Of a stretch of 64,000 nucleotides of DNA, positions 9,132 through 14,666 are shown piece by piece. Source of the DNA: a virus (taxonomy: Duplodnaviria; Heunggongvirae; Uroviricota; Caudoviricetes). The DNA lies in IMG/VR virus record IMGVR_UViG_3300036856_000037; one strand, given 5' to 3'. How positions within the stretch are numbered: position 1 is the first letter of the stretch; the number at the start of each line of letters is the position of its first letter. The position numbers and the translations under genes are program-made. The notes under the pieces were generated by a model. The model did no database searches and had not been told where the DNA came from. It saw nothing but the letters and a program-made list of their open reading frames with translations.

Positions 9132-9602
9132 GTGGAGATTGAGATACGACCGGACTTTTTCAACGGCGTCATAATCGTCCGCGACGAGGAGGGACTGGCG
9201 GCAGTGGGCCGCTGGCTGCAGGAGTCCGACGTCGAATACGAAGCCGAGGAGACGGAAGAAACCGTCGAGTGTCCCCACCCCCGCACCTACGACTCTGGAC
9301 CACGCAAGGGACTGTGCACCCTGTGTGGGGAGCCTGCCGACGACACGGTTCCTGAGCACCGTCCTGTCCGAGAGTTCGAACCCATCCCGATTCTCCCCCA
9401 CCACATACCCGTGATGAATGCGCTGATACAGCGCGGGGAGATCACCACCATGGAGCTCAAGGAAATGTTTGGGCTCATGGGTAGCCAACTCAACACCCAC
9501 ACGATCTACCTCAAGCAGAAGGGCCTGATCGAGCGCGTCCCTGGCCACTGGGCCTGGCAGGTCACCCCGTTGGCCAAATCGCGGGGGTTTGTCCCCTCAT
9601 GA
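9132..9602 (+). CDS. winged-helix DNA-binding protein
   Basis: GTG start after GGAGAGGG; C-terminal wHTH-like segment. Confidence 0.45.
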   Translation: MEIEIRPDFFNGVIIVRDEEGLAAVGRWLQESDVEYEAEETEETVECPHPRTYDSGPRKGLCTLCGEPADDTVPEHRPVREFEPIPILPHHIPVMNALIQRGEITTMELKEMFGLMGSQLNTHTIYLKQKGLIERVPGHWAWQVTPLAKSRGFVPS

Positions 9603-9898
9603 CCGTCCGCTACACCCCATGCTTCTCCGACCCGGAGCGCTGGCAGCCCCAATTGGGTAAGACCAAGGATGACGAGCAGGCGCGCCAGCAGTGCATCACG
9701 TGCTTCATGCGCCTGCAGTGCGCCAACAGTGCACTGGACCAGTTGGAGGACCGCTTACCGGTGGCCGGAATTTGGGCCGGTGTCTACATCCCGTGCGAAA
9801 CCAACACATCCGACACCGGCAAGCGTGCCCGCAGGATCGCCATTTCACAGCTACGAGTACAAACCGGGAGGAAGCGCAGCGTCAAAACCGTCAAGTGA
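9599..9898 (+). CDS. whiB: WhiB-family Fe-S transcription factor
   Basis: Cys motif C-x24-C-x2-C-x5-C plus GIWAG turn. Confidence 0.7.
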   Translation: MTVRYTPCFSDPERWQPQLGKTKDDEQARQQCITCFMRLQCANSALDQLEDRLPVAGIWAGVYIPCETNTSDTGKRARRIAISQLRVQTGRKRSVKTVK

Positions 9899-9928
9899 GC
9901 CAGAAAACCCACCACGAAGGAGAAGGAC

Positions 9929-10228
9929 ATGTCATTCATCACCACGATGCCAGAGGAAATGGTCGCGTCCAGTGCCGGACTGAGCGGTATCGGCGCCGTC
10001 GTCGGCGCGGCTAACGCCAGCGCAGCTCCTATGCTCAACGCCGTCGTCCCACCGGCACCGGAACCAGCGTCCATCCTGCTGTCCGCGCAGTTCATGGTCC
10101 ACGCAGGGATGCACCAGGTCATGCAGGGTATTGGGTCAGCTATGCACGCCATGTTCATCGAGACCCTGTCGACATCAGCCGCGAGCTACGGCGCCTCTGA
10201 GGCGTCGAATCTCATCGCGATGCTCTAG
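9929..10228 (+). CDS. PE-family protein
   Basis: 99 aa, N-terminal MSFITTMPEE with Ala-rich helical PE-like domain. Confidence 0.75.
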   Translation: MSFITTMPEEMVASSAGLSGIGAVVGAANASAAPMLNAVVPPAPEPASILLSAQFMVHAGMHQVMQGIGSAMHAMFIETLSTSAASYGASEASNLIAML

Positions 10229-10231
10229 CTA

Positions 10232-12151: not shown

Positions 12152-12798
12152 CCAGTCCACTCAATGTTGAACCCGGTGACCTGCTCAGTGTCGCCAATGG
12201 TCACCTGATGCTGATGAACCAGTTGGGTCAGACCATCGACCTGACCCAGTCGGCGGGGATTTGGCCCAGCCAGGCGGGGGTGATGGCGATGAAGGGTCAG
12301 ACGGCAGTCCTGACCCAGGCGATGATGACCCAGCTGGGCCTGCACTCAGCCAACCTCACCCAGGCGGCCAGCGCCTACCAGGGCCAAGAGGCAAAGAACA
12401 ATGCCGCGCTGGTGGGCGGCAAGCTCGACAAGGACACCATGGCGGAACTCACCCAAGGTGTTAGCCAAATCGGCCAGATGGGCGCCCAGGCCATGAGCCA
12501 GACGGGTCAGATGCTGGCGCAGACGGCCAGTCAATTCGGCCAGGTGGGCGCCAGTACCACCAACCAGATGGTCCAGGTGGGGGTCAGTGCGGCGGCCCAG
12601 GCGGCTAAGTCGGTGCCCGTCCATGCGGTAGCGCCGGTGACTGAGGCAGAACCGGGTAGTGGTGCCCTGGCCGCCCCCGCCGCAGCACTGACGGACAAGC
12701 AAGAGGCCCCCAAGCGTCACAGTGACAAAACGGACGGGGACAAGGTCACCAAAGAACCCAAAGTGCAACCCGCTGGTCATGAACAGGAGACCTTATGA
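12148..12798 (+). CDS. Esp-like ESX-secretion-associated protein (helical, Q/A/M-rich)
   Basis: GTGA-coupled start; helix-turn-helix hairpin with W (DLTQSAGIWPSQAG), repetitive Q/A/M helical region. Confidence 0.4.
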   Translation: MTSPLNVEPGDLLSVANGHLMLMNQLGQTIDLTQSAGIWPSQAGVMAMKGQTAVLTQAMMTQLGLHSANLTQAASAYQGQEAKNNAALVGGKLDKDTMAELTQGVSQIGQMGAQAMSQTGQMLAQTASQFGQVGASTTNQMVQVGVSAAAQAAKSVPVHAVAPVTEAEPGSGALAAPAAALTDKQEAPKRHSDKTDGDKVTKEPKVQPAGHEQETL

Positions 12799-13883
12799 TC
12801 CCAACCTTGAGCCAGGTCCAGTCCTATGACCCCGTGTGGGTGAAGGATGCGGCCACTTACGGCAGGAACACCGCCGACGTCTATGAAGACACCTGGTCCC
12901 AAGCCGTCTACAACCTCTCCAGCTCCGGCTGGCAGGGACAGGGATTCGATAACGCCTTAGATGCACACCAGGCCGACCGGAGCAGCGCGCGCGGCCATGC
13001 TGATGCACTGCGGAGTACGGCGGCGACAGCGGAGCGCAGCTATGAGGAGTTGGTGTCCATGCGCGACCAGCTCCTCCAGCAGGTGAAGCAGGCCCAGACC
13101 GCGGGATACCAGGTGTCGGAAGCTTTTACCGTGACACCACCCCCGGGCATGTCACCGATGCTGGCGGCGGTGAAGGCGCCTGAGATGATCCAAATGACCG
13201 CCCAGATGCAGGAGGGTGCGGCCAACCTGGGAGCACATGATGCCCTGGTGGGAGGGCAACTGGGTAGATTCGCCGGCGCGCCCACCAATGGGCACGTCCA
13301 CGCCACCGACTTCAAGACTGACCCCAGCCTCCCCCCGGGCACCCAACCCGACCACCCCAAGGACTTAAAGGGCCTATTGGGAGCCCAGGGCATACCACCG
13401 GGGATGAGCCCTATGCACCCGCAGAACCTGGCCGACCTGTTGGGCGGTCAGACACCGGAGGAGCGCAAGACGACCATCACCAACATGATGTTGCCGCCGG
13501 GTGCCCCGCCGGGGTCCAAGCCGACGCCCGACCGCGTCAACGACTTCTGGCGGGGGGTGTCGGGTCGTATCGCGGCCTTGCCGGATGAGGACGCCAACGT
13601 GCGTGAACTGAAGACCCGCATGCACCGGATGGAATTGACCAAATCGTTGTGCTCCGATGACGCCTGGGGTGACAACATCACCAGCTTCCTGGCCGGGTCA
13701 GCAGGTGCGGCCGGTGGCTACGCATTGGGCCGTGGTCCGTGGGCAATACCTGGCGGGATTCAGGCGCTAACGTCAGGCCACCGGGTCTGGGAGTGCATAG
13801 CGGCGCAAGCAGATTACGACGCCGCCATAGCAGGAGAAAGCATCAACCCACTACCCCTACCAATGAAAGCAGGCTACCCATGA
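12795..13883 (+). CDS. WXG-motif protein with Pro-rich linker and unassigned C-terminal domain; possible type VII-secreted effector/toxin
   Basis: SGWQGQG WxG motif at residues 44-50 in a helical N-domain; PPGMSPM repeats; unique C-terminus. Confidence 0.5.
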   Translation: MIPTLSQVQSYDPVWVKDAATYGRNTADVYEDTWSQAVYNLSSSGWQGQGFDNALDAHQADRSSARGHADALRSTAATAERSYEELVSMRDQLLQQVKQAQTAGYQVSEAFTVTPPPGMSPMLAAVKAPEMIQMTAQMQEGAANLGAHDALVGGQLGRFAGAPTNGHVHATDFKTDPSLPPGTQPDHPKDLKGLLGAQGIPPGMSPMHPQNLADLLGGQTPEERKTTITNMMLPPGAPPGSKPTPDRVNDFWRGVSGRIAALPDEDANVRELKTRMHRMELTKSLCSDDAWGDNITSFLAGSAGAAGGYALGRGPWAIPGGIQALTSGHRVWECIAAQADYDAAIAGESINPLPLPMKAGYP

Positions 13884-14125
13884 GATTGATCGACGTCGTT
13901 GCCCTATTGATCACCATCGTGCTGCTGGTCTGCTGGGTCCGAACGAAGAACCCCCGGCTGGGAACGGCCACAGCGTTGTCTTTCGGCGCCATGTTCGGAC
14001 TGCAAGCGTGGTTGTTCAGCCAAGACCACGCGAGCTGGTGGGTGGTGGGCTACACCATCTTCATGGCCGTCGTGGCTCCCATCTTGGCCATCATCGGAGT
14101 GCGCAGGACCAAGGCGCGCAAGTGA
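13880..14125 (+). CDS. small two-helix membrane protein (possible immunity partner)
   Basis: ATGA overlap with upstream WXG gene; two hydrophobic segments. Confidence 0.4.
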   Translation: MRLIDVVALLITIVLLVCWVRTKNPRLGTATALSFGAMFGLQAWLFSQDHASWWVVGYTIFMAVVAPILAIIGVRRTKARK

Positions 14126-14307
14126 GTTCTTTCGAGGAGATGGGCGAGCATTTCAAGGAGCTGGGCCTGGGCGAGGCGTGGGAGGAGTGGCACGCCATGA
14201 TCAACAGAGCGGTAAATGATGGCCATTATTTGCAGGACACCCCTGAGGTCAGGGCTCGGTTGGCCGATGCGGACGAGCTAGCGCGTGACATGGAAGACGA
14301 CGAATGA
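14122..14307 (+). CDS. small acidic protein
   Basis: GTGA overlap start. Confidence 0.3.
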   Translation: MSSFEEMGEHFKELGLGEAWEEWHAMINRAVNDGHYLQDTPEVRARLADADELARDMEDDE

Positions 14308-14666
14308 AAGTCGCCAAAATCCTCGACCAGCACACCGTCGCCATCACCGCCGGTGAAGCAGATGGCATGGAAAAGGGGACGATCCTCGGCATCTGTGGGG
14401 TAGAGATCGAAGACCCTGAGACGAAAGAGGTCATCGGCAAGCTTCCCACCGTGCGGGTCAAGGTGACGGAAGTCCATCCGAAGTTCTGTGTCGCGGAGAC
14501 TTATCGACTCTCCACCAAGTCGCTCGAGGAGATCCTGAGTGCTGGCCGTGCTTCTGACTACAGTCAATACCTCGTCGACCTGATGCTGGACCGGCAGCAA
14601 GGCAAGCGCACCGTGGTCGTCAACGTCGGTGATGACGTGGTCAAGCTCGACCTAAGCGACGAGTGA
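14304..14666 (+). CDS. hypothetical protein
   Basis: ATGA-coupled, last gene of rightward operon. Confidence 0.45.
   Translation: MKVAKILDQHTVAITAGEADGMEKGTILGICGVEIEDPETKEVIGKLPTVRVKVTEVHPKFCVAETYRLSTKSLEEILSAGRASDYSQYLVDLMLDRQQGKRTVVVNVGDDVVKLDLSDE

Follow-up and report, generated by a model that had tools for sequence, protein, structure and literature searches.

The window analysed here, the whole 64-kb stretch of DNA taken from the 116,665-bp contig of IMG/VR record IMGVR_UViG_3300036856_000037, contains ten co-oriented genes that fill positions 9599-14666 and that probably include a phage-carried module of type VII (ESX) secretion substrates. The module comprises a PE-PPE pair and a partner, toxin and immunity trio of the kind known as PEST cassettes, for phage-encoded toxins that are ESX-secreted, and would use the secretion system of the host. 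The PEST-like cassette is already known and its coupling to a PE-PPE pair is new; this combination is found again in large phages related to this one and on one bacterial chromosome, but in none of the 50,697 deposited phage genomes that were searched. PE and PPE proteins are signature ESX substrates of mycobacteria, and a compact mobile operon bears on how type VII substrates and toxins cross the mycomembrane, as a small genetic system for asking whether PE-PPE pairs serve toxin export. The module would also extend phage-borne ESX toxins past the prophages of M. abscessus to a clade of large uncultivated phages. An earlier, sequence-only reading of the interval had described an operon of whiB, PE, PPE, membrane-protein, 106-aa, helical-protein and 362-aa genes, and the open reading frames and lengths were found to be as claimed.

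The PE-PPE pair

The PE gene (9929-10228, + strand; 99 aa, beginning MSFITTMPEE) and the PPE gene (10232-11455, + strand; 407 aa, MVDYGGLPPEINSGRMYAG) are separated by 3 nt. The PE protein matched Pfam family PF00934 over residues 5-94 with 63.2 bits (E = 2.8e-17, cutoff 22), and the PPE protein matched PF00823 over residues 3-165 with 200.4 bits (E = 2.5e-59, cutoff 26). The canonical motifs are present in both, namely P8-E9 and Y87-G-A-S-E91 (the YxxxE export motif) in PE, and P8-P9-E10 and W58-L-G60 (WxG) in PPE. With both profiles well past their cutoffs, the identities first assigned by eye were borne out by the hidden Markov model (HMM) searches, and the Pfam scores of PE, PPE and the WhiB protein described below indicate that the signal is not due to chance. 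The best solved relatives of the two proteins are the two partners of a single M. tuberculosis complex, PE8-PPE15-EspG5 (Rv1040c/Rv1039c; PDB ID: 5XFS, ESX-5-type), with 59 bits for PE8 (5xfs_A) and 190 bits for PPE15 (5xfs_B), and the likeness includes identical motif positions and the adjacent PE-then-PPE order. However, the phage pair is virus-encoded and the C-terminal half of its PPE, despite an SVP-type motif (GSRLSVPATW) near the C-terminus, gave no match to the PPE-SVP C-terminal profile PF12484 at E ≤ 0.1, a profile that most of the bacterial top hits do carry. The middle of the protein is rich in Gly, Ser and Met. The sequences closest to it are metagenomic PPEs of this same module and not the PPEs of named mycobacteria.

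The N-terminal domain of the 362-aa protein

The gene at 12795-13883 (+ strand) encodes a 362-aa protein with an N-terminal domain (12795..13274) followed by a linker and a C-terminal domain (13275..13883). As had been noted from the translation, the N-terminal domain contains a WxG motif, W46-Q-G48 within SGWQGQG, and Pro-rich linker sequence is present. Residues 1-160 were modelled by AlphaFold2 (AF2) with a predicted local distance difference test (pLDDT) score above 92, as a helix (14-42), the W46-Q-G48 turn, a second helix (49-102), a short hairpin and a third helix (121-160). The top Foldseek match of this model was PPE4 of the PE5-PPE4-EspG3 complex (6uuj, prob 0.98), and it superposed on EsxA (3zbh) with a TM-score of 0.82 across 90 residues. 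A profile of the N-domain family matched EsxA-type chains weakly (E = 0.008-0.07), and the 362-aa protein had no Pfam match, including to WXG100 (PF06013). The fold of this protein is PPE/EsxA-like, in agreement with a WXG-type reading, and the WXG100 Pfam profile is not matched; as modelled, the N-terminal domain is a WXG100/PPE-like helical bundle and a putative trafficking domain.

A word-indexed search of 5.8 billion proteins returned nothing beyond the 362-aa protein itself, and an exhaustive HMMER search of 1.84 billion representatives returned 214 relatives of 96-656 aa, nearly all of which share only residues ~1-160 with it. In 150 of these relatives, what follows the N-domain includes TNT, CdiA-type RNase A, GH-E and HNH nucleases, Amidase_6, Abhydrolase_8, calpain-type peptidase and Gly-zipper_Omp domains, and some N-domains weakly matched the Pfam families PPE (n=7) and WXG100 (n=2). 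The joining of one N-domain to many C-termini is the pattern of a polymorphic-toxin trafficking domain. The named relatives belong to Mycobacterium and Mycolicibacterium; an N-domain scan of species genomes found only one metagenome-assembled genome (MAG), and plasmids gave two weak matches only.

The 216-aa partner and the relationship to PEST cassettes

When the 362-aa protein was searched by tblastn against the deposited phages, a single match was obtained over residues 4-161 (E = 1e-3), to gp109 of M. abscessus phage CCUG48898T-2. This protein is annotated as a 'polymorphic toxin protein', its gene is flanked by genes for a 'WXG100 protein' and a 'polymorphic immunity protein', and the N-domain family profile scored 132.6 bits on its residues 1-172. 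PEST cassettes, of superfamilies PEST1 and PEST2, have been described in prophages of the M. abscessus-chelonae group (PMC10654092, PMC8092301). The PEST1/2 toxins are predicted to pair with a small partner in the manner of PE25/PPE41, M. smegmatis was intoxicated by two PEST toxins in the absence of their immunity genes, and the cassettes adjoin prophage integration functions or the attachment junction and are expressed in lysogens (PMC10654092).

The partner position in the window is taken by the gene at 12148-12798 (+ strand), which has a GTG start according to an independent gene call and encodes a helical protein of 216 aa with an N-terminal helical region of ~95 aa and a low-complexity Ala/Gln/Pro tail. 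It contains a YxxxE motif, Y77-Q-G-Q-E81, in which Y77, Q80 and E81 are invariant among the three versions aligned. The family is homologous to gp110 of CCUG48898T-2 over the first ~90 residues (BLASTP E = 8e-6 to L4_182; 15.8 bits to profile A3), with PS-AGV and AY-x-G-x-E in common. The resemblance of the last genes to prophage type VII toxin and immunity cassettes, proposed at the outset from their architecture, is now backed by homology to both gp109 and its partner gp110. The description of the helical protein as Esp-like did not survive, and this identity was rejected: no Esp, WXG100 or PE profile was matched, even at E ≤ 10 neither Pfam nor NCBIfam gave a match to the protein or to two homologues, and the PDB profile search was empty. 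No cultured carrier of the family was found in a pattern scan of 185,579 species genomes.

The window cassette and gp110-gp109-gp108 of CCUG48898T-2 share a gene order in which a small helical partner precedes a large protein whose N-domain is WXG-type and whose C-terminus varies, with a small protein, in the window a putatively protective one, in last place. They also share a homologous N-domain, a homologous YxxxE partner and a polymorphic C-terminus. They differ in that the window cassette shares its operon with PE-PPE and a ~100-aa gene, neither of which has been described for PEST; in that the window partner has 216 aa and a long tail, whereas PEST partners have ~90-100 aa; and in that the C-domain and immunity candidate are unrelated to those of CCUG48898T-2. 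The carriers also differ, for the module resides on one MAG chromosome and in uncultivated phages whose size is ~114-144 kb, as opposed to M. abscessus prophages of ~40-80 kb, and neither an integrase nor an att site was seen adjacent to the module in the window. CpnT of M. tuberculosis, with EsxE-EsxF, is the model for PEST3 (PMC10654092). It resembles the present system as a type VII-exported toxin that needs small helical partners for export, and its TNT domain is also found on relatives of the 362-aa N-domain. However, the N-domain of CpnT has four helices and a double WXG, and its Esx partners are two in number, whereas the window protein has a single WXG-type hairpin with a third helix and one YxxxE partner, PE-PPE taking the place of EsxE/F.

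Conservation of the module

The module has the order PE, PPE, (small transmembrane protein), ~100-aa protein, 216-aa family and 362-aa family, and this order is kept in eight distinct versions with 40-55% identity. These are the window itself; a 143,610-bp contig that is a viral genome in IMG/VR (L002/L003); a 113,757-bp JGI contig; L004; a single element found in three samples (L010-L012); L013; L014; and L008/L009, of which L009 is the MAG contig CAWFDM010000004.1 and L008 is ENA contig_73930. Besides the window, the versions cover three large contigs (114-144 kb) and one MAG chromosome. The chromosomal copy lies intact at 5494-9346 of a 221-kb contig from an uncultured Actinomycetota MAG (L009), with cellular neighbours (p450, SLAC1 and adenylosuccinate lyase), and the module is therefore not exclusive to phages. 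Frameshifts split the PPE, partner and toxin genes in L008, the version of this element assembled in the ENA record, and may reflect either errors of assembly or decay. That PE-PPE and the toxin cassette stay linked throughout suggests, as far as gene order can, that the two are functionally coupled.

Between PPE and the partner gene lie two small genes, one variable and one belonging to the core. The first (11481-11834, + strand) encodes a small membrane protein of 117 aa with two to three hydrophobic segments (5-40 and 48-66); its only homologue is the 170-aa gene of L010-L012, and other versions have unrelated small transmembrane proteins or none in this slot. The second (11831-12151, + strand) encodes a 106-aa protein that scored 49.6 bits with a leave-one-out HMM, for which the remaining six module versions were used, the next-best window protein scoring 14.2, and by this sequence criterion the ~100-aa protein is a true family and a core module gene. 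It had no Pfam, PDB or PHROG match, and its AF2 single-sequence model (pLDDT 52) was too poor for a fold search. A YbaB/EspL-like identity was considered, and no profile or PDB match was obtained for it.

Phage context of the module

Phage gene families, identified with PHROG and Pfam, lie on both sides of the operon. The window is phage in character along its whole length, with minor tail and head proteins, RecE/RecT and a replication initiator among its products, as well as methyltransferases and an HNH endonuclease, and the neighbours of the operon are methyltransferase, QueC-like, HNH and tail genes. The nearest relatives of the tail proteins belong to Mycobacterium phages such as Gaia and Nebkiss, at ~45% identity. 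The operon had no close DNA relative in the deposited phages, and a DNA search with a further 24 kb of the window gave one match of 108 nt, to the QueE-like gene of phage CRB2. All 72 window proteins of at least 90 aa encoded outside the operon interval were scanned with Pfam (E ≤ 1e-5), and no ESX core component was among the matches. With no ESX machinery of its own, the phage would have to use that of its host.

It was considered whether the module is truly phage-borne, or is instead host DNA that was misassembled onto a phage or that lies outside the boundary of an integrated prophage. With values of 0.647 and 0.632, the G+C content of the module is the highest in the window, the rest of which has 0.58-0.64, and the chromosomal copy resides in a MAG of 67% G+C, as this explanation would have it. 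However, the G+C difference is small, phage families flank the module on one contig, and the same position class is found in the three other 114-144-kb contigs, one of which is viral according to IMG/VR. In addition, the 362-aa protein is also encoded on a Logan contig from another run, and in this independent assembly the module is again joined to the phage genes downstream of it. A host origin of this kind is accordingly considered very improbable.

The variable C-terminus and the immunity candidate

The Pro-rich linker of the 362-aa protein spans residues ~161-265 and is followed by a C-terminal domain (~266-362), here called type A, in which Cys286 and Cys334 bound a 47-aa Gly/Ala-rich segment containing GAAGGYALG (GxxxGxxxG). 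At least 9 of the 150 relatives have a Gly-rich C-terminus that is bounded by Cys. The next gene (13880-14125, + strand) overlaps the 362-aa gene by ATGA and encodes a small membrane protein of 81 aa whose hydrophobic segments (1-24 and 51-77) agree with the two-helix protein described before. Comparison of the loci showed that the C-terminus and the downstream small membrane gene swap jointly. The type A domain is also present in L007, where it is followed by a 67-aa multi-transmembrane protein, and in L008/L009, where it is followed by a 92-aa multi-transmembrane protein (L9_92) with 25% identity to the 81-aa protein (E = 0.01). An unrelated Gly-rich C-terminus, type B, is found in L002, L004 and the 113.8-kb contig; in L002 and L004 a small single-transmembrane protein or open reading frame follows (35 aa in L002), and in the 113.8-kb contig a 43-aa gene. 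Joint swapping of a C-terminus with its downstream gene is a signature of toxin-immunity pairs, and the 81-aa protein is, on this comparison, the candidate cognate immunity protein.

The effector would most likely be membrane-active, because the Cys-bounded Gly/Ala-rich segment is glycine-zipper-like and the partner is a membrane protein. The LXG toxins of the type VIIb secretion systems of Firmicutes offer an analogy. These have a helical N-domain, small helical Lap partners that create the signal for export and a C-terminus that is polymorphic, with the immunity gene alongside, and include the membrane-depolarising TspA and the glycine-zipper toxin TelE, with membrane immunity proteins. The likeness lies in the working principle, and by analogy the window pair could likewise match a membrane immunity protein to a membrane-acting C-terminus of the glycine-zipper type; a TelA-LXG/Lap structure was a weak Foldseek match to the 362-aa protein. 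However, the LXG toxins belong to the T7SSb branch, face no mycomembrane and have no sequence relationship to the window proteins.

Several results weigh against the reading of the module as ESX-exported toxin cargo. A toxin fold had been sought for the C-terminal domain and none was found: Pfam gave no relevant match, also for ten related C-termini, and the PDB profile search gave non-significant matches only (for example MakA, E = 0.56), so that toxicity is predicted from family context only. The AF2 model of the C-terminal half is of low confidence, which makes a fold search of this domain meaningless, and no segment of it is hydrophobic enough to score as a transmembrane helix. The similarity among the immunity candidates is marginal (E = 0.01), and PEST partners are half as large as the 216-aa partner, which has no WXG100, PE or Esp profile match. 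No integrase or repressor was found among the 72 scanned proteins of the 64-kb window of the ~117-kb contig, so the neighbouring integration functions that are characteristic of PEST cassettes are missing from the window; were the phage strictly lytic, a toxin-immunity role would be harder to rationalise.

In a different proposal, the exported, membrane-active 362-aa protein and PE-PPE would breach the mycomembrane late in infection as a lysis or egress device, with the 81-aa protein acting as a holin-like timer. This would fit the position of a small two-helix membrane protein downstream of the 362-aa gene, a very weak match of the 81-aa protein to an actinobacterial holin Pfam family (E = 1.2, non-significant), and the best PDB matches of the Gly/Ala-rich segment, which are to the membrane-inserting region of MakA-type pore-forming toxins and are likewise non-significant (E = 0.56). 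However, no holin or pore-toxin match reached significance, the module also sits among the p450, SLAC1 and adenylosuccinate lyase genes of the MAG chromosome, and its components are homologous to PEST cassettes that are expressed in lysogens. A lysis function is therefore regarded as improbable.

Proposed mechanism

Under the preferred reading, that of ESX-secreted toxin cargo, the module would be a self-contained set of type VII substrates arranged as two export pairs. The first would be a PE-PPE heterodimer related to PE8/PPE15, in which PE supplies YxxxE and PPE supplies WxG. In the second, YxxxE would be supplied by the 216-aa protein and WxG by the PPE/WXG100-like N-domain of the 362-aa protein, which would pull the effector domain, polymorphic and C-terminal, along with it through the ESX channel. 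The producing cell would have its cognate protector in the 81-aa membrane protein. The ~100-aa protein may be an accessory factor, possibly an adaptor or chaperone, and WhiB and the helix-turn-helix (HTH) protein encoded upstream of it are candidate regulators. Heterodimer formation, ESX export, toxicity, immunity and membrane action are what we infer from the motifs, homologies and gene order described above.

A second PPE gene and PPE genes in other viruses

A second PPE gene (50206-51270, - strand; 354 aa, MIDFGLLPPEVNS) is located directly downstream of minor tail genes, with no PE beside it; no second PE was found in the window. This orphan PPE scored 155.6 bits to PPE15, is 39% identical to the operon PPE, and has an N-domain that is 53% identical to that of the PPE of IMG/VR prophage L005. 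PPEs of the orphan type adjoin tail genes in L005 and L019 and also occur in viral contigs L016-L018, and IMG/VR holds six PPE-bearing viral contigs in all (L005, L015 and L016-L019). In contrast, tblastn with two different phage PPEs (the operon PPE and a second phage PPE) found nothing in the deposited phages. A protein of the phrog_19005 type (function not assigned; 266 aa) is encoded at 88-888 (- strand) of the window, with homologues in L005 (11045-11944), L016, L017 and L019; in these four PPE-bearing viral contigs it lies within a few kb of the orphan PPE, and the two may form a functional pairing.

A PPE gene in a phage has been noted before, in 2014, namely MAV_0790 in prophage phiMAV_1 of M. 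avium 104 (PMC3986857), which is the only phage precedent in the literature searched, and PE/PPE genes are known on ESX plasmids (PMC8190616). The sequence-only reading had regarded PE/PPE genes as unexpected in phages. This holds for the 50,697 deposited genomes, none of which gave a PPE match by tblastn, and is qualified by the six IMG/VR contigs and by phiMAV_1. The phiMAV_1 gene and the orphan PPEs of L005 and L016-L019 resemble the present case in that a PPE is found inside a phage or prophage genome, and the second PPE of the window is of that type, adjoining tail genes as in L005 and L019. They differ in having neither a PE nor a toxin cassette, both of which accompany the operon PPE. 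PPE genes thus recur in phages in at least two settings, and the deposited genomes that were searched include neither.

The orphan PPE raises the question of whether the operon is cargo of another sort. PE and PPE proteins are surface or mycomembrane proteins, some of them with channel function. The PE-PPE pair and the 362-aa protein could accordingly be exported to the mycomembrane or cell surface so as to remodel the envelope, altering permeability or masking receptors, for instance for superinfection exclusion or nutrient uptake in the infected cell; the Gly-rich C-terminus would then be an anchor and the small membrane proteins assembly partners as opposed to immunity proteins. The recurring placement of an orphan PPE beside tail genes (in L005 and L019 as in the window) suggests that PPEs are themselves useful to phages, and the lack of a toxin family match for the C-domain and of lysogeny genes in the 64-kb window is in keeping with this view. 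However, the N-domain family is overwhelmingly joined to bona fide toxin domains (TNT, RNases and HNH), the 362-aa protein is homologous to annotated PEST toxins, and its C-terminus and downstream small gene swap together, as those of toxin-immunity pairs do. Envelope remodelling is for these reasons judged unlikely, although it is a stronger contender than the lysis device.

A more speculative extension of the toxin-cargo reading, to which we give little credence, is that PE-PPE is no passenger and is instead a partner reserved for the export of the co-encoded toxin across the mycomembrane or its insertion there. The five core genes, namely PE, PPE, the ~100-aa gene and those for the YxxxE partner and the WxG toxin, would on this view form a portable 'outer-membrane conduit plus effector' unit that phages carry from one mycobacterium to another, and the tail-adjacent orphan PPEs a second, independent viral use of PPE for manipulating the mycomembrane. 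This idea is permitted by the fact that the five genes stay linked in order through eight versions at 40-55% identity, in phage and chromosomal settings alike.

Operon layout and regulatory genes

The ten-gene interval opens with whiB (9599-9898, + strand), which encodes a WhiB-like transcription factor of 99 aa. The protein matched the Pfam family Whib (PF02467) with 31.2 bits (cutoff 23.6) and the PHROG families of WhiB-like regulators, and its translation contains Cys8, Cys32, Cys35 and Cys41 and the GIWAG turn that place it in the WhiB family. In L007, which carries a full-length homologue of the 362-aa protein, two WhiB-like genes (1370-1657 and 2255-2500) come after the toxin and small membrane genes, a placement that echoes that of whiB upstream of the module in the window.

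The start of whiB is overlapped by the 3' end of a winged-HTH (MarR-like) gene (9132..9602, + strand). The longest open reading frame is 8703-9602, but its first ~140 codons look non-coding; the probable, though uncertain, start is the GTG at 9132, which has GGGAGAGGG directly 5' of it. Residues 232-280 gave a weak match to MarR_2 (E = 0.008) that is under the Pfam cutoff. Because this gene is co-oriented with whiB and overlaps its start, the rightward unit probably begins at the divergent intergenic region at ~8960-9131, with the HTH gene as its probable first gene. A promoter and terminator consensus scan of 8400-15400 gave nothing beyond the expectation from shuffled sequence.

From the 117-aa gene onward all junctions of the operon are 4-nt ATGA/GTGA overlaps, by which the last two genes are also coupled. 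These encode a small acidic protein of 61 aa (14122-14307, + strand) and a protein of 120 aa (14304-14666, + strand) that matches phrog_27728 (function not assigned). Neither gene was detected by tblastn in the other module loci, and they are not conserved with the module.

Other features of the window

A 2000-aa open reading frame at 56066-62068 (- strand) gave matches to a number of minor-tail PHROG families, 'minor tail protein with lysin activity' being one of them, and has an endolysin-like stretch, which makes it an unusually large tail fusion protein. A 7-deazaguanine/queuosine gene set is formed by a QueC-like gene (7023-7808, - strand), a queuine tRNA-ribosyltransferase/DpdA-like gene (44840-45895, - strand) and genes for GTP cyclohydrolase I, PTPS/QueD and a radical-SAM QueE-like protein, and suggests modification of DNA or tRNA. 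A Ro60/TROVE gene is present at 18636-20408 (- strand). Just upstream of it are a YrlA-type Y RNA-like element (20582-20713, - strand), which scored 44.7 bits (E = 1.8e-8 when 1.1 kb was searched) and so falls below its gathering score, 69, and a separate tRNA-like element (20898-20959, - strand), which scored 36.9 bits, above the tRNA gathering score, where ARAGORN called no tRNA. Together with the Ro60 gene, these elements look like a phage Ro60-Y RNA module.

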